From an uncultured Clostridia bacterium (GTDB taxonomy: Bacteria; Bacillota; Clostridia; TANB77; CAG-508), in assembly GCA_934168355.1 (NCBI GenBank), contig CAKPNI010000001.1, positions 3,886-67,885 on the forward strand: a stretch of DNA of 64,000 nucleotides, read 5' to 3'. The notes under the pieces are model-generated. The model was not told the origin of the DNA, made no database searches, and saw only the letters and a list, made by a program, of their open reading frames with translations. Below are positions 2,438-15,592 of this stretch, one piece after another; position 1 is the first letter of the stretch, and the number at the start of each line of letters is the position of its first letter. The position numbers and the translations under genes were made by a program.

Positions 2438-4891
2438 ATGATATATAAATTTACATCAAGAGCCAAAAAGGCAATTGAGGTTGCACAGGATGAAGCAATT
2501 TCTCTTGGACACAACTATATAGGAACTGAACATGTTTTATATGGTTTGATAAAAGAGGGGGCAGGAGTTGCAAGTAGAGTTTTACAAAATCAAGGAATAA
2601 CTGCTGAAGATATAGAAGCAAAAATCATTGAAATGATAGGCAAAGAAGTAATTACAGAAACTGACACACTGGGTTTTACCCCAAGAACCAAAAGGGTTAT
2701 AGAAAATAGTTTTATAGAGGCTAGAAAACTCGGATATGACTACATAGGAACAGAACATCTTTTAATGGGAATTTTAAGAGAGGGAGATAGTATTGCTGTT
2801 AGAATTTTACTTGATTTAGATGTTGAATTACCTAAGTTGTACAACGAAATTGTACATGTTATAAATGAAGCAGAAGATGTATCAAGAGAAAGTAAATCAA
2901 ATGATAAACAAAATGGAAGTTTTAATTCAACTCCAACTTTAAACCAATTTGGAGAAGATTTAACAAAAAAGGCTAAAGATGGAAGGCTAGACCCAGTAGT
3001 TGGTAGAAGTAAAGAGATTGAAAGAGTTATTCAAATTTTATCAAGAAGAACAAAAAATAATCCATGTTTAATAGGAGAGCCGGGTGTTGGTAAAACTGCA
3101 ATTGTAGAGGGCTTGGCACAAAAAATTAATTTGGGAGATGTACCTGAAATTCTTAAAAATAAAAGAGTTGTAAGTATGGATATTTCAGGAATGGTTGCAG
3201 GTGCAAAGTACAGAGGCGATTTTGAAGAAAGAATTAAAAAGGCTTTAGGAGAAGTAAAAAAAGCAGGAGATGTAATATTATTTATTGATGAAATTCATAC
3301 AATAGTTGGTGCAGGTTCTGCAGAGGGTGCGATTGATGCTGCAAATATTTTAAAACCTATGCTTGCAAGAGGTGAAATTCAGTTAGTTGGTGCAACTACA
3401 ATTGGAGAGTATAGAAAATATATAGAAAAAGATACAGCATTAGAGCGTAGATTTAGCCCTGTTACCGTAAATGAGCCAACTGAAAAGGATACTATTACAA
3501 TCTTAAAAGGAATAAGAGATAAATATGAAGCTCATCATAATGTAAAGATTACAGACGAAGCAATAGAAGCAGCTGTTACATTATCTGAAAGATATATTAA
3601 TGATAGATTTTTACCAGATAAAGCAATAGATTTAATTGATGAGGCATCTTCAAAAGCTAGACTTCAGACTTACACAGAGCCAGAAAGTTTGAAAGATATG
3701 CAAGAAGAAATTGACAAAATATCAAAAGACAAAGAAGAAGCGGTTCGTGGTCAAAAGTTTGAGAAAGCGGCATCACTTAGAGATGAGGAAAAGGCTTTAA
3801 GAGAAAAATATGAAAAAGAGGAGAAAAAGTGGAAAAATCAAAATACTAAAAAAGTCGTTACAATAACAGAAGAAAATATTGCAGATGTAATTTCACTTTG
3901 GACAGGAATTCCAGCTAAAAAGATATCAGAAGACGAAAATGAAAGACTTCGTAACTTAGAAAAAACATTACACGAAAGAGTAATCGGTCAAAATGAAGCA
4001 GTAGAAGCAGTAAGCAAGGCAATAAGAAGAGGAAGAGTAGGTCTAAAAGACCCAAATAGGCCAATAGGTTCATTCCTATTTTTAGGTCCAACAGGTGTAG
4101 GAAAAACAGAGTTATCAAAAGCATTAGCAGAAAGCCTATTTGGAGATGAATCTGCAATGATAAGAATTGATATGTCTGAATATATGGAAGCACATTCGGT
4201 ATCAAAGCTTATAGGATCTCCTCCGGGATATGTAGGATTTGAAGAAGGAGGCCAGTTAACTGAAAAGATTAGAAGAAAACCATATTCTGTAATTTTGTTT
4301 GATGAGATTGAAAAAGCACACCCTGATGTAATGAATATGCTTCTTCAAATACTTGATGATGGAAGACTTACAGATTCCAATGGTAGAACAGTTAATTTCA
4401 AAAACACTGTAATTATTATGACATCTAATATTGGTGCAAGAATTATTACAGATAAAAGAACTTTAGGTTTCTCAAACGAAACAAAAAATGGTGACAAAAA
4501 TAAAGATGAACAAAAAGAATATGAAAATATCAAAAAAGAAGTAATGGCTGAATTAAAACGAGAGTTTAGACCAGAGTTTATAAACCGTATTGATGAGATA
4601 ATTGTATTCCATAAGTTGAATGATGATGAAATTTCTAAAATTATTGAGTTAATGCTTAATGAGGTTAAAAATAGAATGAAAACTCAAAAATACGTGATTG
4701 AATTTTCGCCTAAAGTTAATGAATTAATTTCTAAACAAGGTATTGACAAAGCTTTTGGTGCAAGACCTCTTAAAAGAACTATTCAGAATTTAGTTGAAGA
4801 TAAAATTGCTGAAGCTATTTTGGACGGTGTTGTTAAAAAAGGTAAAGAGGCAAGTGTTGATTGTGATGGAGAAGAGATAGTAATTAGGTAA
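2438..4891 (+). CDS. clpC: ATP-dependent Clp protease ATP-binding subunit ClpC
   Basis: 817 aa with two Clp N-repeats, two AAA+ modules (GEPGVGKT, GPTGVGKT) and UVR linker. Confidence 0.95.
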   Translation: MIYKFTSRAKKAIEVAQDEAISLGHNYIGTEHVLYGLIKEGAGVASRVLQNQGITAEDIEAKIIEMIGKEVITETDTLGFTPRTKRVIENSFIEARKLGYDYIGTEHLLMGILREGDSIAVRILLDLDVELPKLYNEIVHVINEAEDVSRESKSNDKQNGSFNSTPTLNQFGEDLTKKAKDGRLDPVVGRSKEIERVIQILSRRTKNNPCLIGEPGVGKTAIVEGLAQKINLGDVPEILKNKRVVSMDISGMVAGAKYRGDFEERIKKALGEVKKAGDVILFIDEIHTIVGAGSAEGAIDAANILKPMLARGEIQLVGATTIGEYRKYIEKDTALERRFSPVTVNEPTEKDTITILKGIRDKYEAHHNVKITDEAIEAAVTLSERYINDRFLPDKAIDLIDEASSKARLQTYTEPESLKDMQEEIDKISKDKEEAVRGQKFEKAASLRDEEKALREKYEKEEKKWKNQNTKKVVTITEENIADVISLWTGIPAKKISEDENERLRNLEKTLHERVIGQNEAVEAVSKAIRRGRVGLKDPNRPIGSFLFLGPTGVGKTELSKALAESLFGDESAMIRIDMSEYMEAHSVSKLIGSPPGYVGFEEGGQLTEKIRRKPYSVILFDEIEKAHPDVMNMLLQILDDGRLTDSNGRTVNFKNTVIIMTSNIGARIITDKRTLGFSNETKNGDKNKDEQKEYENIKKEVMAELKREFRPEFINRIDEIIVFHKLNDDEISKIIELMLNEVKNRMKTQKYVIEFSPKVNELISKQGIDKAFGARPLKRTIQNLVEDKIAEAILDGVVKKGKEASVDCDGEEIVIR

Positions 4892-4899
4892 TTTGTACG

Positions 4900-4949
4900 A
4901 AAAAGAACCGGTCCCAAAAGAACATTGTTCGTTTGGGACCGGTTCTTTT
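4900..4949. terminator. Palindromic repeat element copy R3 (about 24-bp stem, TTG loop) between convergent clpC and CDF genes; probable bidirectional terminator
   Basis: AAAAAGAACCGGTCCCAAAAGAACA-TTG-TTCGTTTGGGACCGGTTCTTTT. Followed by TTTTG on the + strand and preceded by A-run. Flanked by convergent stops at 4891 and 4957. Confidence 0.7.
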
Positions 4950-4956
4950 GTGAACA

Positions 4957-5820: not shown

Positions 5821-5954
5821 TAATTAGCCACATCCTTTATACAATTTTTATGAAAATATAATCTTAAGTATATCACATTTAGGTTAAAAAGTTAATAAAA
5901 ACAGTAAAAATTACAGAAATATTACATTATTGTTACAAAAATATTACAAAAGTG

Positions 5955-6019: not shown

Positions 6020-6355
6020 ATGAAAGGTATTGGAATTTTAATATATATTTTAATATTTATAATAGTAGCTTTAATTGGATATGCGGTAGTTCAAATTAAA
6101 GCATTTGGAATGAATGTAAAAGATTTTTGGAGCTTTATAGAAGCAAACCAAACTTTAGATAGATTGTATGCTTTTTCAAAAAAATATGAAAAACTAAGTG
6201 TACAAGAACAATTGATATACTTAAAAGAAGCAGAAGAAATATTTAATGCTTTTGATAAAGTGCCTAATGCATTATGGGAAGATGAATATGAAAAATATAA
6301 CACAGTACTAGAAAAGTACAAAGATATCAAAATGCTAAGATGGGCAAATAATTAA
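6020..6355 (+). CDS. Hypothetical small membrane protein
   Basis: N-terminal TM helix. ATG at 6020 after GTGAGGTGA SD. Confidence 0.5.
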   Translation: MKGIGILIYILIFIIVALIGYAVVQIKAFGMNVKDFWSFIEANQTLDRLYAFSKKYEKLSVQEQLIYLKEAEEIFNAFDKVPNALWEDEYEKYNTVLEKYKDIKMLRWANN

Positions 6356-6451
6356 TTAAGCTTAACATAATAATTCCTAAATATATAGATGATAGCTAGG
6401 TCATAGGACTTAGCTATTTTTTTAGGATTTTTTATTGACAAAAATAAACAT

Positions 6452-6988
6452 TTGTTCTATAATAAAGCAAATGAAATCGAAAAAGTAAAGATTGGAGCAA
6501 ATAAATTGAAAAAAATTGGATTTACAATAGGCAAATATGCACCATATCATATAGGTCATAAATTTTTAATAGAAACAGCATTAAAAGATATGGATGAATT
6601 TTATGTGGTGGTTTATGATACACCAGAGTTAAATATAAAAATAGAAGATAAAATTAAATGGATACAAAGTGATTTTCCGTATGTGAAGATTTTAAAGGCT
6701 TATAATAGTCCAAAGCAATATGGTTTGGATGAAGAAAGTGTGAAAATGCAGATGGAATATTTGTGCAAAATAATTGGAGATGTTAAATTTACTCATTTTT
6801 ATAGTAGTGAAGAGTATGGAAGATGCGTTGCAGATTATCTAGGAATCCAAAATGTTGAGGTGGATAAGGAAAGAAAGATTTTTAATGTGAGAGCAAGTGA
6901 TATAAGGGGTGATGTGGAGAAGTTTAAAATGTATTTGAATGATGAGGTTTATAGGGATTTGAGTGAAAAAAAAATTCTAAAAGCTTGA
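6452..6988 (+). CDS. Cytidylyltransferase-like (HxGH) nucleotidyltransferase, NMNAT/TagD-like
   Basis: GKYAPYHIGH motif resembling the (T/H)xGH nucleotidyltransferase signature. Start uncertain (possible TTG 6507). Confidence 0.55.
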   Translation: MFYNKANEIEKVKIGANKLKKIGFTIGKYAPYHIGHKFLIETALKDMDEFYVVVYDTPELNIKIEDKIKWIQSDFPYVKILKAYNSPKQYGLDEESVKMQMEYLCKIIGDVKFTHFYSSEEYGRCVADYLGIQNVEVDKERKIFNVRASDIRGDVEKFKMYLNDEVYRDLSEKKILKA

Positions 6989-7057
6989 CAAGGTTCATGA
7001 TATAGTATAAAATGCAAACAAAAGTTCTTGAACTCGAAATAAAGGGAGTGATTAAAA

Positions 7058-8095
7058 TTGAATAATATAGAGAATTTAAAAGATTTAATTATTTACCAAA
7101 GCCAAAATAATGAAAATATATCGGTGGAAGTTTTATATAATGAAGAAGATTTTTGGTTAACACAAAAATCAATGTCTAAGTTATTTAATGTAGCAGAAAA
7201 CAATATTACATATCATTTACAGAATATATTTAAAACAGAGGAACTAAAGAAAGAAGCAGTTACTCAAAAAATTAGAGTAACTGCTTCAGACGGAAAAAAA
7301 TACAATACAAATTTTTATAGCCTTGATGCAATTATAGCCGTAGGATACAGAGTAAATTCAAAAGAAGCAACAGATTTTAGAATATGGGCAACAAAAACAT
7401 TAAAAGAATACATAAAAAAAGGTTTTGTTGTTAATGGTGAAATGTTGAAAAATGGACCTAAATTCGGTAAAGATTACTTTGATGAATTATTAGCTAAAAT
7501 AAAAGAAATTAGGGCTAGTGAAAGAAGATTTTATCAAAAAATAACAGATATATATAAAGAATGTAGTTTTGATTATGACAAAAAAAGTCAAACAACACAA
7601 GAATTTTATAAAAATGTTCAAAATAAGTTACATTATGCAATTACTGGAATGACTGCTCCTGAAATAATTAAATATGATATATATACAGATGCTAGCTTTG
7701 ACAATCAAAGTAAAATTGCAACATATGCAAAGAAAAATAGTAACTTTATATTAAAATGGATTTCACGCAATTTAAATAAGGTTGCACATAAACAAACATA
7801 TAATATGTTAAAAAGAGTCAGAAAAATTAAAAACGTAGGAAATATAAAAGAGGATTTATTAATAAGTAAAAATGTTTTTTGTAGTCTTTTATCGAATTAC
7901 GATAAAAATAGATATTTAATTCTAGTGTATTTAGTAGATATTTTAGATGGAGAAAGTTTAATCAAAATAACTCAGAAAGAGGTTTCAGAAAAGCTAAAGA
8001 TAAATTTAGGTATAGTAAATAAGAGTTTTGGACAACTTATTGAAATGAAAATTTTAGAAAAGGTAAAGAATGGAATATATATGTTATTGATATAA
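7058..8095 (+). CDS. RhuM-family (virulence protein RhuM) protein
   Basis: Strong similarity over the N-terminal 150 aa to the RhuM family (LFNVAENNITYHLQNIFKTEEL, NTNFYSLDAIIAVGYRVNSKEATDFRIWATKTLKEYIKKGF). TTG start after AAAGGGAGTG SD. Confidence 0.8.
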   Translation: MNNIENLKDLIIYQSQNNENISVEVLYNEEDFWLTQKSMSKLFNVAENNITYHLQNIFKTEELKKEAVTQKIRVTASDGKKYNTNFYSLDAIIAVGYRVNSKEATDFRIWATKTLKEYIKKGFVVNGEMLKNGPKFGKDYFDELLAKIKEIRASERRFYQKITDIYKECSFDYDKKSQTTQEFYKNVQNKLHYAITGMTAPEIIKYDIYTDASFDNQSKIATYAKKNSNFILKWISRNLNKVAHKQTYNMLKRVRKIKNVGNIKEDLLISKNVFCSLLSNYDKNRYLILVYLVDILDGESLIKITQKEVSEKLKINLGIVNKSFGQLIEMKILEKVKNGIYMLLI

Positions 8096-8132
8096 ATTAA
8101 AACAAGAATTCATATATTAAATTATTCTAAAA

Positions 8133-8147
8133 GCATTGTGTGACCAT
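8133..8147 (+). repeat. 15-bp direct repeat GCATTGTGTGACCAT (copy 1)
   Basis: Exact 15-mer recurs at 11925-11939. Both copies lie in intergenic regions. Confidence 0.7.
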
Positions 8148-8245
8148 AGCTCTTTAAACCAAATTATTAAAAATATAAAATATTAAAGAATGGAAAAAAG
8201 TAAAAGAGAGAATTATATGCCAAATGGAGATAGGAGGAAATAAAT

Positions 8246-9301
8246 ATGCAAAATAGAAAAAATAGCATTTCAGAAAAAATAAGTGATAACTATAATTTAA
8301 TTAATTCTAAGGCGATATCCAATTATTGTAGAAAAATAAAACATAAATTTAATACAGAAGAATTAGCTGTTTTAGTATACAGAAATAATAGAATGAGTAT
8401 AGAAGAAAAAATAGAAAAATATACAGAATTAGTAAACAATTATCCTGATATGGAAGTAATAAAAAGAATTAATTGCAAACATTATGATAGTGTAAAAACT
8501 ATGATAAAAAATGAAATTCAAAGGCTACAAAATCTATACAAAAAGTTAAAAGAAGAAGATAAAGATAGCATTTGTGTTTGGACAGAATATAATAAATCAA
8601 CATTAAGATATGACCATAATAGTGATACAAAAAATACATTTAGAACTTACAAAGAAGCATATAAAGATATACAAGAATATATTGAAGAATATGATGATAC
8701 AATATCTTTTGATATTAAGAAAAAATATTTTGATAAAGAAAAAAGAGATATTTTTGCAACATATATTGTAGAAAATAAAAAAATAAAATTAACAAATTTA
8801 CATGAATGTAATGATGAGTTGATAGATATAGACCAAATATTTTTAAATATACCAACATCGTTTAAAAAAGGAGATATACTTGTTTCAAAAAATAGCTCAA
8901 TATTTAATTGCGGAGATTATAGTGAAATTTTTGTTTTAGATTATTTATGCACATGGAATGAAGATTTAGAACAAAAATTAATAAAAGGGTATTGGGATTC
9001 TTCAGATATGATTGGATACGGATATTATTTATACGGGGAAGATTCCACAGATTTTGTATTAGACCACAAATGGAGTTATGATTGTTTTGAGTACTATGAT
9101 GGAGAATTTACCGGAAAAAATAGAATTTTAAAAGATATAAGTAGCTTTATAAAAGGTAAAATTAATTTAGAATTATTTGTCCATGCATATGATTATTACA
9201 AAAATGATTTTAATTATAACTTGTCAGACTTTTATACTGATGAGGGTTTAAAATTAGCTGGAATGAGTGAAGAAGATATTAAAAAAATAAATTATAAATA
9301 A
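8246..9301 (+). CDS. Hypothetical protein (351 aa, Tyr/Asp-rich C-terminal half)
   Basis: ORF with SD GGAGG upstream. No recognisable domain. Confidence 0.5.
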   Translation: MQNRKNSISEKISDNYNLINSKAISNYCRKIKHKFNTEELAVLVYRNNRMSIEEKIEKYTELVNNYPDMEVIKRINCKHYDSVKTMIKNEIQRLQNLYKKLKEEDKDSICVWTEYNKSTLRYDHNSDTKNTFRTYKEAYKDIQEYIEEYDDTISFDIKKKYFDKEKRDIFATYIVENKKIKLTNLHECNDELIDIDQIFLNIPTSFKKGDILVSKNSSIFNCGDYSEIFVLDYLCTWNEDLEQKLIKGYWDSSDMIGYGYYLYGEDSTDFVLDHKWSYDCFEYYDGEFTGKNRILKDISSFIKGKINLELFVHAYDYYKNDFNYNLSDFYTDEGLKLAGMSEEDIKKINYK

Positions 9302-9421
9302 TAAAAAGTGAATTTTATTAAAAAATATATAGTGAAAGATATATTGTAAAATTTAATTTGTTATGCTATTATTGATTTGACGGTAAAACGACAATAAAAT
9401 AAGGAGTAAAAGGAAAAAATT

Positions 9422-10906
9422 ATGGGTAAAATTTGTTTATCAAAATCAAAATATTGCAAAGCTATTCAATGTAACAAATTATTATGGCTAGACAAATATA
9501 AACCAGAAGTTGCAGTTCCAACTGCAAGAGATATGGTTTTAGAAAATGGAACAAAAGTAGGAGAACTTGCCAGAGGTCTATTTGGAGATTACATAAACAT
9601 TGACTTTAACAAAGATTTAAATGTTATGATTGAAGAAACCTTGAAATCATTAAAAAATAAACCCAATATAATTACAGAAGCTTCATTTAACTATGAAAAC
9701 AATTTTTGCAGTGTTGATATTCTAAAAAACGACGTAGATGGTATAGAAATATATGAAGTTAAAAGCTCGACATATATACATAATATCTATTTAGATGATG
9801 CATCATATCAATATTATGTACTAAGAAATTTAGGATTAAATGTAAAAAGTGTAAATATAGTCTATTTAAATAAGGAATATTATAGAAGCGGAGAATTAGA
9901 GATAAACAAATTATTCAACATAAAAAATATTACGGATATAGCAATACAAAAGCAAAATGAAATAAAAAATAAAATAGAAGAAGTCAATAAATACATGTTA
10001 GAAAATAATGAAAAAGAGCCTGAAAAAGACATTGATATTTATTGTTTTAAACCATACGAATGTCAATATTGGCCATATTGTAGTAGACATTTGCCAAAAA
10101 ATAATATATTTGACATTAGAATAATGCACAAGGACAAAAAGTTTGAACTTTATAAAAAAGGAATAATTAACTTTGAAGATGTAGCAAATGAGAATATCAA
10201 TCAAAAATACTTAGAACAAGTGATTTTTGAGTTAAATAATAAACCACCTAAAATAGAAAAAGAGAAAATAAAAGAATTTATGGGACAACTTACGTATCCA
10301 TTATATTTTTTAGATTTTGAAACATTTCAGCTGGCTATTCCGGAATTTGATGGAACAAACCCATATATGCAAATACCATTTCAGTATTCTCTTCATTATG
10401 TGGATGATATAAATGGAAAATTACATCATAAGGAATTTTTAGCAAAAAGCGGAATTGACCCAAGAAGAGAATTAGCAGAAAGGTTAGTAGAAGATATACC
10501 AAAAGATGTATGTGTACTTGCATACAATATGAGTTTTGAAAAAACAGTAATAAAGAAATTGGCAAATTATTACCAAGATTTGCATGATGATTTAATGAAA
10601 ATACATGATAATATAAAAGACCTAATGATACCTTTTTATAACAGAAATTATTATGTTAAAGAAATGAAGGGGTCATATTCGATAAAATATGTGTTACCAG
10701 CACTTTTTCCAGATGACCCAGAGCTAGATTATCACAATTTGCCGGTTGTTCATAATGGTGGAGAAGCATCTGATGCGTTTTTATCATTAGCGAGTTTGTC
10801 AAAAGAAGAACAAGAAAAAATAAGAGAAGGCTTATTAGTATATTGTAAATTAGATACTTTTGCAATGGTCAAAATTTGGGAAAAACTAAAGGAAGTCATA
10901 AGCTAA
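9422..10906 (+). CDS. DUF2779-family protein: N-terminal Cas4/RecB-like PD-(D/E)xK nuclease with Fe-S cysteines plus C-terminal FLDFET/PFQYS module
   Basis: N-terminal SKSKYCKAIQCNKLLWL and CFKPYECQYWPYC cysteine cluster. C-terminal FLDFETF...IPFQYSLH motifs characteristic of DUF2779. Confidence 0.7.
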   Translation: MGKICLSKSKYCKAIQCNKLLWLDKYKPEVAVPTARDMVLENGTKVGELARGLFGDYINIDFNKDLNVMIEETLKSLKNKPNIITEASFNYENNFCSVDILKNDVDGIEIYEVKSSTYIHNIYLDDASYQYYVLRNLGLNVKSVNIVYLNKEYYRSGELEINKLFNIKNITDIAIQKQNEIKNKIEEVNKYMLENNEKEPEKDIDIYCFKPYECQYWPYCSRHLPKNNIFDIRIMHKDKKFELYKKGIINFEDVANENINQKYLEQVIFELNNKPPKIEKEKIKEFMGQLTYPLYFLDFETFQLAIPEFDGTNPYMQIPFQYSLHYVDDINGKLHHKEFLAKSGIDPRRELAERLVEDIPKDVCVLAYNMSFEKTVIKKLANYYQDLHDDLMKIHDNIKDLMIPFYNRNYYVKEMKGSYSIKYVLPALFPDDPELDYHNLPVVHNGGEASDAFLSLASLSKEEQEKIREGLLVYCKLDTFAMVKIWEKLKEVIS

Positions 10907-10913
10907 AGGGAGA

Positions 10914-11915
10914 ATGAAAATGGATTTATATGAGAAAAATGGGAATATTTTATACATACTAAATGTATTAAAAAAATATAGTGATGAAGAACATATGCTT
11001 TCTGCTGCAGATATGCAAAGGAAAATCAAGAAGATATATGATGTTGAAATAGACACAAGAACAATAAGAAGAAATATTAACCTGCTAAAATATAAACTTG
11101 ATTATGATATAAGTACTAGAGAAGAAAATGGAAAAGGATATTATCTAAATAGAGACCCGGAAACAGACTTTGAACAGGGAGAAGTTAGAGCTATAATTGA
11201 TAATTTTAGTTATGCAAATTACATTGTTCCAAGTGTTGCAAAGCAAATTATAAAAAAATGTAAAAATATGCAAACTGTATATGAAAATGAAAAATTAAAA
11301 GATTACCAAATATATTCAGTAAATAGTAAAACAGAAAATGCAGAAGTAATAAAAAATATAGAAGATATTTCTAATAGTATTTATAATAACAATAAAATAA
11401 AATTTGAATATTGGAAATATGAAATAACAAATAAATTAGAAAAGAAAATAGTAAGCATACCAACTGTTTCGCCTTTTGCAATTGTATATAATAAACAGGA
11501 ATTTTATTTTATAGGGATAAAAGATGGACAAGATAAATTTTATCACTATAGATTAGATAGAATGAAAAATGTAAAAGAATTAAATGAAAAAATAACTATT
11601 AAAAAAACTAAAACTCAAATTAAAGAATTTGCAGAATCTACGGTAGAAATGTTTGGTGGACCAAAAGAAGAGATTGAGGCAATCTGTAACAGACTTCTTT
11701 TAAATTCTATATTTGACGTTTTTGGTAAAAATGTTACTATTGAAAAAATTTCGGGAGATGAAGAGAATATTAAATTAATAGTCGATTCAAATCCAATGGG
11801 CTTTAGGATGTGGGCTATGAGAAATATTGATATGGTTGAGGTAATTAAGCCTGAAAAACTAAGAAATGAAATGAAAGAAATTGTCCAAAAAGCAATGGAA
11901 AAATATAAGATATAA
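10914..11915 (+). CDS. WYL-domain transcriptional regulator (HTH plus WYL)
   Basis: N-terminal wHTH (ILYILNVLKKYSDEEHMLSAADM) and WYL signature FYHYRLDRMKNV. C-terminal WCTD-like region. Confidence 0.75.
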   Translation: MKMDLYEKNGNILYILNVLKKYSDEEHMLSAADMQRKIKKIYDVEIDTRTIRRNINLLKYKLDYDISTREENGKGYYLNRDPETDFEQGEVRAIIDNFSYANYIVPSVAKQIIKKCKNMQTVYENEKLKDYQIYSVNSKTENAEVIKNIEDISNSIYNNNKIKFEYWKYEITNKLEKKIVSIPTVSPFAIVYNKQEFYFIGIKDGQDKFYHYRLDRMKNVKELNEKITIKKTKTQIKEFAESTVEMFGGPKEEIEAICNRLLLNSIFDVFGKNVTIEKISGDEENIKLIVDSNPMGFRMWAMRNIDMVEVIKPEKLRNEMKEIVQKAMEKYKI

Positions 11916-11924
11916 TAATGCATT

Positions 11925-11939
11925 GTGTGACCATGTATA
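11925..11939 (+). repeat. 15-bp direct repeat GCATTGTGTGACCAT (copy 2)
   Basis: Identical to 8133-8147. Confidence 0.7.
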
Positions 11940-12035
11940 TTCAAATCTTCTTTATTTTAATGTATAATATGTGCATGAAATATGGGGGGAGTTTATATTA
12001 ATTAATACCCAAAATTTATTAAGGAGGAATATAAA

Positions 12036-13634
12036 TTGGTCAAAAAGTATCTATTAGATGCAGAAGATGAAGAAATAATAGAAGAGCTAGATGATTTGTG
12101 TGGAGTTGCGCAAAATAAAGAAGTGTTAAGAGATATAATACTTTATATAAAATTAAGGCAGAACAATGAATTGGACTTGGGAAATTACAATATAATTGTA
12201 AGAAATAGTTCATCTTATAATTTACTAAATGATTTACTAAAAGTTTGCGCAAAGGTTTTCCTAAAATATAATATCATAGAAAATGAAAAAATATGTTATT
12301 TTGATAAAATTGTAAATAATAGAAGAGACTGTTTATTTGATAGAATTGCCGGAATTGAAGATTCTATAATTGTTATTAATGATAGGAAATTAAGAATTAA
12401 TTATAATGATGAGCTAGAAAATTTAAATAGAATTATTAGGCAGTATAAAAACAAAATTTTTATATTTGAAGATTCTAATTTCTGTGAGGGAGAAACAGAT
12501 AGCGAACTTGGGGAAGTTGCAGCATTTAGAATGAAAATAAATAAAATTTCATTAGATGATAAAATTATGTATTGTAAAAATAAATTTGATGCACAAAATT
12601 TAAGGTACAAAAAACAAGATTTAAGGGCATATGCTGATGTTCCTTTTTGGATTTTGAAAAATATGGTTATAAAATTAATAATAGAATGCAAGAGTAAAAA
12701 ATTAGATTTTATAGATTCAAAAATGCTAAAAAATAATAAGAAATTTTATACTGATAAGAATGAACCTGAAAGAAGAAATGAAAGAAAAAACTCAAAACAA
12801 AAAATTACAGCAAATGAAGAACTAAATAATTTGATTGGTTTAGATGAAATAAAAAAGCAAGTAGAAAAAATACTTAATTATATAAAAATAAATAAAGAAA
12901 GAGGCCAAATGCCATCATTACATATGTGTTTTACAGGAAATCCGGGAACAGGAAAGACAAGTATTGCAAGAATTATAGGAAAGATATTTGAAGAGGAAAG
13001 CATATTAAGTGGTAGTGGAGATTTTGTGGAAATTCATGGTAGGGATTTGGTTGACAAATATGTTGGATGGACTGCCCAAAGGGTACATAATACAGTTGAA
13101 AAAGCTATTGGTGGAGTTTTATTTATTGATGAAGCATATAGTCTGGTAACAAATACAAGGGGAAGCTTTGAAGATGAAGCAATTGCAACATTAATAAAAG
13201 AAATGGAAGACCACAGAAACGAGGTTTGCATTATACTTGCAGGTTATACTAAAGAAATGAAAAATCTTATAAAACTTAATCCGGGATTTGAAAGCAGAAT
13301 TCAATTTACTATTAATTTTCCAAATTATAATGAAGAAGAGTTATTGGAAATTTTTAGTGGATTGTGCAAAAAAGAAAAATATAGGTTAGCTAGTAATTGC
13401 AAAGATATTTTAATTGATAATTTTAAAAAGGCTAAAAATCAAGAGAATTTTGGGAATGGTAGATATGCTAGAAATTTATTTGAAAAGGTGAAATTTGAAC
13501 AGGCTGATAGAATTGTTCAAACTAATAGTAAAGCTATAAATTCAATAGTTAAGAATGATATAGAAAAAGCTATTGATGGAATGGCAGTACATGAGGTAAA
13601 AAAGGTTAAGAAAATTGGTTTTGGTACAAATTAA
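12036..13634 (+). CDS. AAA+ ATPase, SpoVK/CbbX family, with about 280-aa N-terminal extension
   Basis: Walker A GNPGTGKTSIARIIG, Walker B VLFIDEAYSL. SpoVK-like C-terminal helical region. TTG start 8 nt after AAGGAGG. Confidence 0.8.
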   Translation: MVKKYLLDAEDEEIIEELDDLCGVAQNKEVLRDIILYIKLRQNNELDLGNYNIIVRNSSSYNLLNDLLKVCAKVFLKYNIIENEKICYFDKIVNNRRDCLFDRIAGIEDSIIVINDRKLRINYNDELENLNRIIRQYKNKIFIFEDSNFCEGETDSELGEVAAFRMKINKISLDDKIMYCKNKFDAQNLRYKKQDLRAYADVPFWILKNMVIKLIIECKSKKLDFIDSKMLKNNKKFYTDKNEPERRNERKNSKQKITANEELNNLIGLDEIKKQVEKILNYIKINKERGQMPSLHMCFTGNPGTGKTSIARIIGKIFEEESILSGSGDFVEIHGRDLVDKYVGWTAQRVHNTVEKAIGGVLFIDEAYSLVTNTRGSFEDEAIATLIKEMEDHRNEVCIILAGYTKEMKNLIKLNPGFESRIQFTINFPNYNEEELLEIFSGLCKKEKYRLASNCKDILIDNFKKAKNQENFGNGRYARNLFEKVKFEQADRIVQTNSKAINSIVKNDIEKAIDGMAVHEVKKVKKIGFGTN

Positions 13635-13744
13635 TTGGAAATATATTATTACTAGTTAATAAAAATAATTGTTTTTTGGAATAGAACCATATAAAGTGAA
13701 CCCAAATTATTAGAAAAAGTTTAATAATTTGAGTTCATTTTCAT

Positions 13745-15592
13745 TTAAATCTCAATTCTAGGACTATACTCTTCAAGCCACATATTTACCTGACACAAAT
13801 AGGCCATAAGTTGAGGTCCTGTCATCAACTGTCCAAACCAAGGACGAGTAAAAGCCTTGCCATCAGTATTCAAAATATCCAAAATAAAATCACGGTTAAG
13901 CAAATAATTAATAGGTCTAGAGCTATCTTTCATAATTTCAGTAAGCATACTCTTAACTGCTACCAAATAAGTAGGGTTAAAAGTCTTAGGATAAGGAGAT
14001 TTCTTTCTATCTACAATTTCATCAGGCAAAACACCTTTCATAATATGCCTTAAAAGGCCTTTTTCTCTGCCTTTATAAGCTTTCATTTCCCAAGGTACAT
14101 TATACATATACTGAGCTAACCTGTAATCGCAAAAAGGAACACGAACTTCAAAACCATTTGCCATACTCATTCTATCTGCACGTTCTAAAAGAGTTTGCAT
14201 AAACCATGTAATTGTAAGATAAGAAATTTTACGTTTTTCGGCAGTATCAAAAGAATCGGTATCTAAAATTTCAACATTAGATAAACTTTGATTATATCTA
14301 AAATCTATATAATCTGTTAAATTTACTTTACTTGAAATAGATGGATTTAAAAGTTTAGTTCTTTCAAGTTTTGCAATAGACCAAGGAAAAGTACCTGAAT
14401 TTAAACTATCTTCACGGAAAAACCATGGATATCCACCAAAAATTTCATCTGCACATTCTCCCATTAAAGTAACGGTTTTTTCCTTTTTTACTTCTTTACA
14501 AAATAGATATAAAGAAGAATCTACATCTGCCATTCCGGGCATATCACGAGTTATCATTGCTTCTTTTAAACTTGACGCAAGCTCAGGTGTATCTAACATT
14601 ACAGTATGATGTTTAGAGTAAGTTGATTTATTCATTAAATCTATATAATAATTATCTGAATTAGGCTGAAAATCAGATTTAACAAAGTTTTTATCATTAT
14701 CTACATAATCTACCGAATAAGTATCTAATGGTGCCATATCTTTTTTTTGCATATAATCAGAGGTAAATTTAGTAATTATGCTAGAGTCTAAACCTCCTGA
14801 TAAAAATGTACAAATAGGCATATCTGAAACCAATTGTCTTGAAATGGCATCTTTTAATAAAGAATCTAAATGATTACAAGTTTCATCAAAATCTTCCAAA
14901 TGACGTTTAGATTTTAGTTCCCAATATTGTTCAATATGAAGACCAGACTTGTTATATACTGCAAAATGGGCAGGTTTAATTTCATATACATTTTTATAAA
15001 TAGTAAAGCCGGGAGTATGGCTAGGGCCAATTCCAAACAATTCAGAAATTCCTTGAGAGTCAATAATTTTTTCAAAATTAGGATACTTAAAAATTGCTTT
15101 CAATTCAGAAGCAAATAGAAGTCCACCATCAAATTCAGTATAAAATAAAGGTTTAACTCCAAAATGGTCTCTTGCCATAAAAAGCTCCTGAGTCTTGGTG
15201 TTCCAAATAGCAAAACTAAAAATTCCATTTAAGTGGTTTACTACATCTTTACCATAATATATGTAGCTTTTTAAAAGAACTTCAGTATCACAATGACCAT
15301 AAAATGTAAAGCCATTTTCAGTTAAAGTTTTCCTTAGTTCTTTTGTATTATAAATTTGCCCATTATAAACAATCACATATTCACCTTGGTTAAAACGTTG
15401 AACCATAGGTTGTTTGCCACCTTCTGGGTCAATAACAATAAGTCTTTTATGACCAAGAGCAACATTATTATTTAGGTAAAGACCTTCTTCATCAGGTCCA
15501 CGATTACTTAACGATTGGGTCATAGTATTTATGACATTTTTCTTATTAGGTAATTCTTTTTTATAATTTACCAAACCAACAATTCCACACAT
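13745..15592 (-). CDS. asnB: Asparagine synthase (glutamine-hydrolysing)
   Basis: 615 aa, N-terminal MCGIVG Ntn-amidotransferase, synthetase domain SGGLDSS. Confidence 0.9.
   Translation of the reverse strand: MCGIVGLVNYKKELPNKKNVINTMTQSLSNRGPDEEGLYLNNNVALGHKRLIVIDPEGGKQPMVQRFNQGEYVIVYNGQIYNTKELRKTLTENGFTFYGHCDTEVLLKSYIYYGKDVVNHLNGIFSFAIWNTKTQELFMARDHFGVKPLFYTEFDGGLLFASELKAIFKYPNFEKIIDSQGISELFGIGPSHTPGFTIYKNVYEIKPAHFAVYNKSGLHIEQYWELKSKRHLEDFDETCNHLDSLLKDAISRQLVSDMPICTFLSGGLDSSIITKFTSDYMQKKDMAPLDTYSVDYVDNDKNFVKSDFQPNSDNYYIDLMNKSTYSKHHTVMLDTPELASSLKEAMITRDMPGMADVDSSLYLFCKEVKKEKTVTLMGECADEIFGGYPWFFREDSLNSGTFPWSIAKLERTKLLNPSISSKVNLTDYIDFRYNQSLSNVEILDTDSFDTAEKRKISYLTITWFMQTLLERADRMSMANGFEVRVPFCDYRLAQYMYNVPWEMKAYKGREKGLLRHIMKGVLPDEIVDRKKSPYPKTFNPTYLVAVKSMLTEIMKDSSRPINYLLNRDFILDILNTDGKAFTRPWFGQLMTGPQLMAYLCQVNMWLEEYSPRIEI

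Follow-up and report, generated by a model that had tools for sequence, protein, structure and literature searches.

Between the clpC operon and asnB, the DNA analysed here (the window, a stretch of 64,000 nucleotides (nt) from an uncultured gut Clostridia bacterium, with a low G+C content of about 28%) carries a gene cluster that a first-pass annotation had described as defence-like, with a WYL-domain regulator and a SpoVK-like AAA+ ATPase proposed as a two-gene module. This raises the question of what these genes have in common and how they are controlled. The six genes named at that stage (an HxGH nucleotidyltransferase, a RhuM-family protein, a 351-amino-acid (aa) orphan, a DUF2779 protein, the WYL regulator and the ATPase) were all recovered on the forward strand where they had been placed, with housekeeping genes on either side (open reading frame (ORF) list and family scans). 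We propose, with a probability of roughly 55%, that positions 8133-13634 form a WYL-centred inducible regulatory module of the DriD, PafBC or CapW type, organized as two sigma-A-type transcription units that each lie behind the same 15-bp box. Known circuits of the DNA-damage response and of phage defence are similar to this module, but none is a match for it. Its features are the following:

8133-8147, forward strand: box 1, GCATTGTGTGACCAT, 5 nt upstream of the promoter-like site TTTAAA-17-TAAAAT (8153-8181)
8246-9301, forward strand: the 351-aa 'orphan', a free-standing C-terminal domain of a PolC-like protein
9422-10906, forward strand: DUF2779 protein (PF11074, E=3e-46, 157.4 bits against a cut-off of 23.3)
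10920-11915, forward strand: WYL-family transcription factor, third gene of unit 1 (PF13280, E=2e-8, 34.6 bits against a cut-off of 21.8)
11920-11934, forward strand: box 2, GCATTGTGTGACCAT, beginning 4 nt past the end of the WYL gene, with the promoter-like site TTCAAA-17-TATAAT (11940-11968) 5 nt downstream
12036-13634, forward strand: tandem AAA+ protein of 532 aa (PF00004 and AAA_lid_6), with a TTG start codon and the Shine-Dalgarno sequence AAGGAGG at 12021-12027

The box has exactly two matches in the 64-kb window, even when three mismatches are allowed. Both lie 113-116 nt before a start codon, and the two intergenic regions share nothing else. Box 1 precedes the orphan-DUF2779-WYL unit and box 2 precedes the AAA+ gene, the -35 elements being weak. 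The Shine-Dalgarno sequence attributed to the ATPase in the first-pass annotation is real, with the TTG start at 12036; the tight spacing reported for the WYL and AAA+ genes is not, as these are separated by 120 nt and a promoter, whereas the tight junction is that between DUF2779 and WYL, where the second gene starts 13 nt after the stop codon of the first.

We compared the region with related loci, designated by L numbers (L007, L062 and so on), 30 of which come from a CDF-protein scan with one genome per species. Across species the box has the consensus WRCATTRYRTGACCA and an unchanged geometry, and it precedes all the AAA+ orthologues examined (L007, L009, L010, L044, L056, L059, L062 and L063). 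It is also present before orphan or PolC-orphan operons (L042, L009, L056), before DUF2779 (L009, L044) and before a few other island genes. Because a conserved TATAAT lies at a fixed distance from the box, we interpret the arrangement as a sigma-A promoter with an upstream site. In the related loci (624 kb), 14 sites conform to the composite pattern TGACCA-N27-30-TAnAAT, where 2.7 are expected from shuffles; 11 of these 14 sites are located upstream of AAA+, orphan/PolC, DUF2779, p292 or p99 genes, and none is found in the clpC backbones of the related loci. Of the known elements with which the 15-mer was compared (CtsR, LexA, Spo0A, SpoIIID and alternative-sigma elements), none fits.

Public metagenomes were then scanned for the exact DNA pattern alone, and the counts given here are among the matches listed. 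Seventeen low-GC loci were obtained, 13 of which hold island genes. A WYL homologue with 43-75% identity lies within about 1 kb of the box in seven of the 17 (L065, L070, L110, L121, L140, L153, L155), and in seven, accounting for eight sites, a tandem AAA+ gene lies directly downstream of it; no classical repair gene was found near the box in these 17 loci. The higher-GC matches were unrelated repeated sequences. The scan thus links the box with the AAA+ gene and with WYL proteins of this subfamily. Eight further pattern matches in IMG/VR, none with island genes, were treated as chance.

Two arrangements of the box promoters in other loci deserve mention. In L070, two box promoters arranged in tandem 167 nt apart (3569-3617 and 3736-3783) separate a WYL gene with 59% identity from a tandem AAA+ gene in divergent orientation. 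In L062 (11035-11075), and at about 11030-11065 in both L059 and L063, the -10 element of the AAA+ box promoter is straddled by an inverted repeat of 10 bp (CTCTAAAGTT...AACTTTAGAG) with a T-run behind it; this repeat would serve the WYL unit as a terminator and would overlap the promoter that follows. At the AAA+ box promoter of the window it is missing.

The WYL protein is our candidate for the factor that acts at the box. PADLOC WYL profiles recognize it (E=6e-21), with PDLC01457 spanning aa 29-246; its WCX match is sub-threshold (18.4 bits against a cut-off of 23.9) and its putative N-terminal helix-turn-helix (HTH) has no Pfam match. It has 1146 homologues, the best 120 of which are at least 86% identical. 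Among WYL proteins of known structure, even the best PDB match is negligible (E=0.58). Regulators with the winged HTH-WYL-WCX architecture often adjoin defence systems, and the family senses single-stranded DNA (ssDNA) and controls damage-response and/or defence genes (PMC9122601, PMC11662680). DriD promoters have their site at a fixed distance from the -10 element and poor -35 elements (PMC13004042), and DdaA is a single WYL activator that runs both damage-response and defence genes (PMC12392091). The window protein appears to share the HTH-WYL-(WCX) architecture with DriD of Caulobacter, PafBC of mycobacteria, DdaA of Moraxellaceae and BrxR/CapW, and its gene likewise stands beside or within the genes that it presumably controls. 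The fixed distance of the box from the -10 and the poor -35 recall DriD. However, the window box has no evident dyad and is placed just upstream of the -35 position rather than over it, and none of the WYL regulons described has a tandem AAA+ protein, a DUF2779 protein or a PolC-derived domain among its targets.

Since WYL factors of such architecture act from fixed-distance sites on promoters with poor -35 elements, or repress defence operons, we infer that the box, immediately before the weak -35, is the binding site of the WYL protein. Its WYL domain would respond to ssDNA or to a nucleotide signal, as in DriD, PafBC, DdaA or CapW, and the protein, most likely an activator, would then switch on its own operon together with the AAA+ gene. 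Unit 1 would thus supply the PolC-derived domain protein, the Cas4-like/DEDDy nuclease and the WYL protein itself, and unit 2 a two-ring AAA+ motor, so that nuclease and unfoldase would be made only upon DNA damage or replication of foreign DNA. Circuits under WYL control are known in kind; the effectors proposed here are uncharacterized.

Several observations weigh against this proposal. The promoter elements (-35 and -10) were called by a consensus scan, which in DNA this rich in AT shows no enrichment over shuffled sequence. Whereas the sites of BrxR, CapW and DriD are dyad-like, the box has no palindromic structure. Orthologues of AAA+ (L007/L008) and of the orphan (L042) have the box although there is no WYL gene closer than 10 kb; therefore, the factor acts in trans at these sites, or another factor binds the box. 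The WYL protein is conserved at 87-90%, against 60-85% for its proposed targets, and could have other, unseen targets. Finally, the sequence is as compatible with repression as with activation: among the known WYL factors, DriD, PafBC and DdaA activate damage genes, whereas CapW and BrxR repress defence operons.

The association between the WYL and AAA+ genes, which had been noted in the first-pass annotation, holds, and it recurs in at least six independent contexts (the window, L056-58, L059-63, L062, L155 and L070), with the box promoter between the two genes or just after the WYL gene. Rather than a two-gene module, however, we find WYL-centred, box-driven cassettes (nuclease, PolC-derived domain, AAA+) that are reduced from a larger island. 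All four window genes have ratios of nonsynonymous to synonymous substitution (dN/dS, relative to L058 and L059) of 0.07-0.27, indicating purifying selection: 0.075-0.08 for WYL, 0.14-0.27 for DUF2779, 0.20-0.23 for the orphan, and 0.14 and 0.08-0.10 for the two AAA+ domains, D1 and D2.

The DUF2779 protein is a predicted dual nuclease, with an N-terminal Cas4-like PD-(D/E)xK domain bearing a cysteine cluster and a C-terminal DEDD(y) RNase-H-like 3'-5' exonuclease domain. The window sequence contains C5/C12/C17, SVD...EVK, CX5CX5C and FLDFE, and it keeps the cysteine cluster and the catalytic acidic residues; it scores below the threshold of the UU173 family model (56 against a cut-off of 225). 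An N-terminal Cas4-like PD-(D/E)xK domain and a C-terminal DEDD(h/y) exonuclease domain have been described for this family, which has no tested function (PMC3985635, PMC13621843), and one member is quasi-essential in a minimal Mycoplasma (PMC13621843). The two-domain build is shared with the DUF2779/UU173 family (e.g. MMSYN1_0389 of JCVI-syn3.0), and solo Cas4 and the exonuclease MrfB are the other relatives to which it can be compared, but the window gene belongs to an accessory, putatively WYL-regulated module instead of being a stand-alone quasi-essential gene.

The 351-aa protein, presented as an orphan in the first-pass annotation, belongs to a family with at least 234 homologues, some of them fused behind DnaB or Pol III fragments, although Pfam, NCBIfam, PHROG and PADLOC give no match for it. 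Its domain corresponds, with 74-76% identity, to the C-terminal 340 residues of proteins of 1101 aa (L056/L058) and 1117 aa (L062). The remainder of these proteins consists of PHP, a palm containing PDIDLNFS and fingers, a PolC core that extends to position 1365/1445 of the PolC model but has the N-terminal, OB and exonuclease domains missing, and it gives a partial match to NF004225, 'error-prone DNA polymerase'. Two proteins, P0061 and P0057, are intermediate deletion forms between the PolC-orphan and the window gene, which starts with MQNR where the full-length gene has MENRVE, the MxNR start being kept. As far as these sequences indicate, the window gene arose by in-frame deletion from a PolC-like protein of roughly 1100 aa. 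The domain has conserved Cys/His and acidic residues, and its AlphaFold2 (AF2) model is confident (predicted local distance difference test (pLDDT) 89, predicted template modelling score (pTM) 0.85); Foldseek and profile searches in PDB and BFVD returned no match. No match was found in INPHARED (50,697 phage records), in IMG/VR or, for the orphan domain, in 72,556 plasmids, where only the PolC part of the PolC-orphan aligns, to real polC, at about 34% identity. A distant homologue (46% identity) is located among integrase, DUF927, DnaB_C, TraG and ParA genes in L046/L047.

The N-terminal part of the ATPase, previously taken for a large uncharacterized domain, is a degenerate AAA+ module according to hhalign and Foldseek. 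This first domain (D1, aa 1-240) lacks Walker A and B, with GNYNIIVRN in place of the P-loop and IIVIND in place of Walker B. It is joined by a linker rich in Lys, Arg and Asn to D2, where Walker A and B are intact (GNPGTGKT, FIDEAY) and a KYVG pore loop and an FESR Arg finger are present. When a profile of the N-domains was aligned with the D2 profile, hhalign gave a probability of 92% (E=6e-7) over 215 collinear columns, and in Foldseek about 500-600 columns of the AF2 model, whose N-terminal half has a pLDDT of about 80-90, aligned with the type II AAA+ proteins p97, Pex1/6, NSF and ClpA. The protein is thus predicted to be a two-ring (type II) AAA+ with a dead D1 and an active D2, purifying selection acting even on the dead D1. 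Homologues of the N-terminal half are confined to this architecture (55 in an indexed search; 57 clusters among 1.84 billion representatives). D2 (aa 250-505) is 35-36% identical to CbbX (PDB 3SYL, E=1e-44; Foldseek E=4e-13) and aligns with EccA1, sharing the AAA_lid_6 lid, the Tyr pore loop and the Arg finger. In contrast to EccA, with its TPR N-terminus, and to SpoVK and CbbX, in which the N-terminus is short, the window protein starts with the degenerate AAA+ module; its family is also rare, lies below all cut-offs and has a conserved C-terminal [KR]IGF tail. PADLOC returned weak IetA (E=1e-9, with no IetS partner) and TRIP13 matches, and phage SpoVK-like genes were matched only at the level of D2.

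The [KR]-I-G-F tail lies 1-4 residues from the C-terminus in family members down to 24% identity, including some with no more than 24-28% identity in D1 (relatives L044 11650-13236 and L058 12340-13932), and in the window it reads KKIGF (nt 13614-13622, IGF being aa 527-529). The tripeptide IGF is the ClpP-docking element of ClpX. By analogy, the AAA+ tail might dock on ClpP, though in a terminal position unlike that in ClpX.

Many database homologues of the AAA+ protein break frame inside the P-loop codons (P0007, P0009, P0028, P0188, P0198, P0217). We rejected pseudogenization or another biological origin for this recurrent frameshift: L007 (10886-10960) has CCACGG where other loci have CCAGG or CCTGG, i.e. 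an extra base in CCWGG, on a contig in which ftsW and murE are also split. The frame breaks are probably a systematic sequencing or assembly error at CCWGG sites that are possibly methylated.

The related loci contain fuller versions of the same gene set. In L062, the order is DnaJ C-terminal fragment, DnaB-like protein (426 aa), p257, DnaB C-domain, PolC-orphan, Tri1-like ADP-ribosylarginine hydrolase, FtsZ fragment, DUF2779, WYL and AAA+, the FtsZ fragment adjoining the hydrolase in the full island. L056-58 have the same left half, followed by DnaA domain III, WYL, p377, AAA+, ORF6N and asnB, again in the asnB slot. The order PDDEXK_4, WYL, AAA+, DUF2779, p442, RhuM is found in L059-63, and the L059 DNA is a permutation of the window order. 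In L044, DnaJ-C, DUF2779, p430, WYL, a DnaB fragment, p280, the orphan and AAA+ are followed by PDC-S02, NUDIX, HIT, Fic and MazG-like genes. Lone AAA+ (L007/8) and orphan (L042) genes that keep the box are found in housekeeping neighbourhoods, next to purB and mur genes (L007) or mutS and tdk (L042). The cassettes are conserved and predicted to be co-regulated, yet positionally mobile. According to NCBIfam, the island partners are domain-level pieces (DnaB 179-432/435, DnaA 102-318/437, FtsZ 75-144/353), and the island paralogues at L062 222-12739 and L058 1529-13932 are all intact ORFs with 64-80% identity between the two species. The window order (orphan, DUF2779, WYL, AAA+) is collinear with that of L062 once the polymerase part, the FtsZ fragment and the hydrolase are left out, and the window module descends from a larger island of roughly 13 kb.

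The block is accessory at this locus, as had been suggested in the first-pass annotation. The window has ctsR-mcsA-mcsB-clpC and a CDF transporter gene on its left flank and asnB-rpmF-secG on its right flank (family scans). When the window proteins were mapped onto the 30 loci, a conserved backbone emerged: ctsR...clpC-CDF-small membrane protein-(NMNAT)-asnB-rpmF-secG. Beyond the module itself, the interval comprises the following features:

6020-6355, forward strand: small membrane protein of 111 aa, backbone, beside the CDF gene in more than 20 related species (65-99% identity)
6391-6418: terminator hairpin after the small membrane protein gene
6435-6463: own promoter of the NMNAT-like gene, a perfect TTGACA-17-TATAAT
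6506-6988, forward strand: NMNAT/NadR-like HxGH nucleotidyltransferase of 160 aa (TIGR01526, E=1e-16; phrog_3462)
7058-8095, forward strand: chimeric ORF, RhuM N-terminal part and RNase-H-like/winged-helix remnant (PF13310, E=3e-62; PADLOC PDC-S05)
13693-13741: 20-nt inverted repeat, 90% complementary, between the convergent AAA+ and asnB genes, right edge of the cargo

The NMNAT-like gene, which had been counted as an island member, is kept at 75-90% identity in L012, L014, L016 and L025, where it adjoins asnB or other cargo; it is semi-conserved backbone and forms the left edge of a variable slot. This slot is empty in L012 and L014, in which ClpC is 93-96% identical and the gaps between the NMNAT-like gene and asnB are 142 and 73 nt, and nearly empty in L025 (0.8 kb of filler). 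In L013 it holds an AAA_14/DUF4143 ATPase, a MYG1-like protein and a metallophosphoesterase, and in L015, L016 and L020 GH3 and glucoamylase-like genes, with an additional RNase-H-like gene in L016 and Bro-N and ORF6N genes in L020. The G+C content drops to 21-22% at 7.5-9.5 kb, against 29-33% in clpC and asnB. Because the membrane protein and NMNAT-like genes are backbone and the sister sites are empty or otherwise filled, we delimit the cargo to 7058-13634: it has been acquired in a hypervariable slot between the NMNAT-like gene and asnB, and the block is not core in the genus with constant neighbours. The block is present at 99-100% identity on six human-gut metagenome contigs of the same species, all four working genes being intact on all six. 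The gut samples with this species include ERZ27287012 and the Hadza sets. No att-like or target-site repeats flank the cargo, and the junction sequences are not conserved between species. Integrase or recombinase, structural and transfer genes, which would point to a prophage, a plasmid or an integrative and conjugative element, are likewise absent from the window block, and an Rfam scan of it gave no RNA elements. The inverted repeat at 13693-13741 probably terminates transcription in both directions; conservation of this region does not extend to sister species, which have hairpins of their own there. In three species, the 3' end of asnB faces island genes convergently (L042 10001-13100, L056 12342-17235, window 12036-15592). 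These genes are the orphan, or AAA+ with or without ORF6N, and the far side of asnB varies (spoIIAA or rpmF), which suggests that the asnB 3' end is a preferred insertion site.

The RhuM gene of the first-pass annotation matches PF13310 and the candidate defence family PDC-S05, but only in part. In the chimeric ORF, the RhuM part corresponds to aa 1-202 (nt 7058-7663) and covers positions 1-142 of the 252 of the model, the C-terminal 110 positions being without match; aa 203-345 are a foreign remnant. Residues 203-224 are 100% identical to aa 4-25 of a 243-aa protein of L016, which follows the NMNAT-like gene there and matches RVT_3/RNase_H, and residues 226-345 are 76% identical to aa 124-243 of the same protein, so that the RNase-H core has been deleted in the window. 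The N-terminal 200 aa match RhuM/PDC-S05 strongly, and in L056 and L059, too, the module has RhuM or ORF6N genes beside it. Truncated in this way and joined to what is left of another gene, the window copy is probably rearrangement debris that is non-functional as RhuM.

Two repeats were observed left of the slot. In the divergent intergenic region of the CDF and small membrane protein genes, two tandem 22-nt units, TTACAGAAATATTACATTATTG and TTACAAAAATATTACAAAAGTG, with a partial third copy (5911-5954, to about 5975), may be an operator. Further left, clpC and the CDF gene converge on a 31-nt inverted repeat (4894-4956; 87% complementary, 1-nt loop) that probably terminates transcription from both sides.

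Other explanations of the module have to be weighed. The block could be a new anti-phage defence system, in which the WYL protein, as a BrxR/CapW-like repressor, would release the DUF2779 nuclease and the AAA+ effector on infection. We consider this possible, though on balance unlikely. A variable low-G+C slot, a nuclease-plus-ATPase composition typical of defence systems and the common proximity of winged HTH-WYL-WCX regulators to such systems (PMC9122601, PMC11662680) agree with it, as do candidate defence-island neighbours in four contexts (in the window, L056 and L059 the RhuM/ORF6N genes, PDC-S05; in L044 PDC-S02, Fic and MazG-like genes). However, the PADLOC scan (PADLOC-DB v2.0.0) that had been suggested found no known system in the window: the orphan and DUF2779 have no match, and what remains is the single gene PDC-S05, the generic WYL profiles and the weak IetA-like match of the AAA+ protein; in the wider loci, only the neighbouring PDC-S05 and PDC-S02 genes are recognized. 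Moreover, the box lies upstream of the -35 and not over the promoter, the fuller island is dominated by PolC, DnaB, DnaA and FtsZ paralogues, which are not known defence parts, and a relative of the nuclease is quasi-essential in a minimal Mycoplasma (PMC13621843). Of the defence-like cluster of the first-pass annotation, the accessory slot and the recurring WYL-AAA+ link therefore stand, whereas its role in defence is guilt by association. It is rather unlikely that the genes are instead the decaying relic of an integrated plasmid- or phage-like replicon, with leftover replication and partition genes and WYL as its regulator. The full island does encode a helicase consisting of the DnaB C-domain, a polymerase of PolC type in which the catalytic motif PDIDLNFS is intact, DnaA domain III and a protein resembling tubulin/FtsZ; the distant orphan homologue has integrase, TraG and ParA genes among its neighbours in L046/L047; and the deletion series from PolC-orphan through P0061/P0057 to the window gene, the shuffled or permuted gene order between species and the RhuM debris next door point the same way. 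Yet no integrase, capsid or conjugation genes and no origin-like repeats lie beside the island in six contexts, the window junctions have no att-like repeats, and the phage, IMG/VR and plasmid searches left the orphan unmatched. The four window genes are intact in six same-species contigs and under purifying selection, and every cassette keeps its box promoter.

A genome-wide LexA-independent damage regulon under a PafBC-, DriD- or DdaA-like WYL activator, with the window genes as repair or tolerance factors, appears decidedly improbable. It would account for the high conservation of the WYL protein, for single box genes in housekeeping neighbourhoods (L007, L042) and for the resemblance of the DUF2779 C-domain to the repair exonuclease MrfB, and it has a precedent in the dual control exerted by DdaA (PMC12392091). 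The PolC-like polymerase and the RecA-fold DnaB_C of the full island also recall imuA-imuB-dnaE2 under PafBC, where a Pol III alpha paralogue and a RecA-fold partner stand under a damage-type regulator. The island polymerase, however, is derived from PolC and not from DnaE2, is fused to the orphan domain and has no ImuB beside it, and in the window copy the polymerase part is deleted. The regulon is disfavoured because the box is found only before island genes and never before repair genes of the classical kind such as recA or uvr (in the metagenome matches listed for the exact pattern and in the 624 kb from related loci); the module is also absent from the slot in sister species, and its gene content varies strongly. 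That the ATPase is the sporulation protein SpoVK, its neighbours being unrelated, is barely conceivable. TIGR02881 (spore_V_K) is its best NCBIfam match (E=2e-74, aa 260-502) and SpoIIID lies near the gene in L009, but the 250.2 bits are far below the cut-off of 422.95, and the CbbX (TIGR02880, 195.5 bits, cut-off 459) and EccA (TIGR03922, 178.8 bits, cut-off 467) models score similarly. With the extra degenerate AAA+ ring, a sigma-A-type promoter whose box is common to the neighbouring operon, and WYL linkage in six contexts, a canonical SpoVK identity was excluded. A bolder idea, which we hold only tentatively and think improbable, is that the window module is the minimal form of an undescribed ssDNA-triggered, WYL-activated island of stripped-down paralogues of host machines. 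Its parts may be the PolC core with its novel-fold domain, the DnaB C-domain, DnaA domain III, the FtsZ fragment beside the Tri1-like hydrolase and the DnaJ C-terminal fragment; these may be decoys or guards for inhibitors with which phages target replication and division, or they may slow both processes in the host as dominant-negative brakes, with an AAA+/ClpP pair and the nuclease as executioners.

The WYL-centred inducible module remains the reading that we favour, and it bears on a wider question. WYL regulators are emerging as a common ssDNA-sensing switch for SOS-independent damage responses and phage defence, and the examples so far come almost all from Proteobacteria and Actinobacteria. 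The locus described here is a compact candidate WYL circuit from uncultured gut Clostridia, with one 15-bp site, two promoters and three effectors. These effectors offer a handle on the DUF2779 nucleases, which are widespread but uncharacterized, on a rare family of tandem AAA+ proteins in which one ring is a pseudo-ATPase and the tail possibly docks on a protease, and on a well-predicted domain without detectable structural relative. The larger island of truncated PolC, DnaB, DnaA, FtsZ and DnaJ paralogues would, if functional, represent an unusual strategy.

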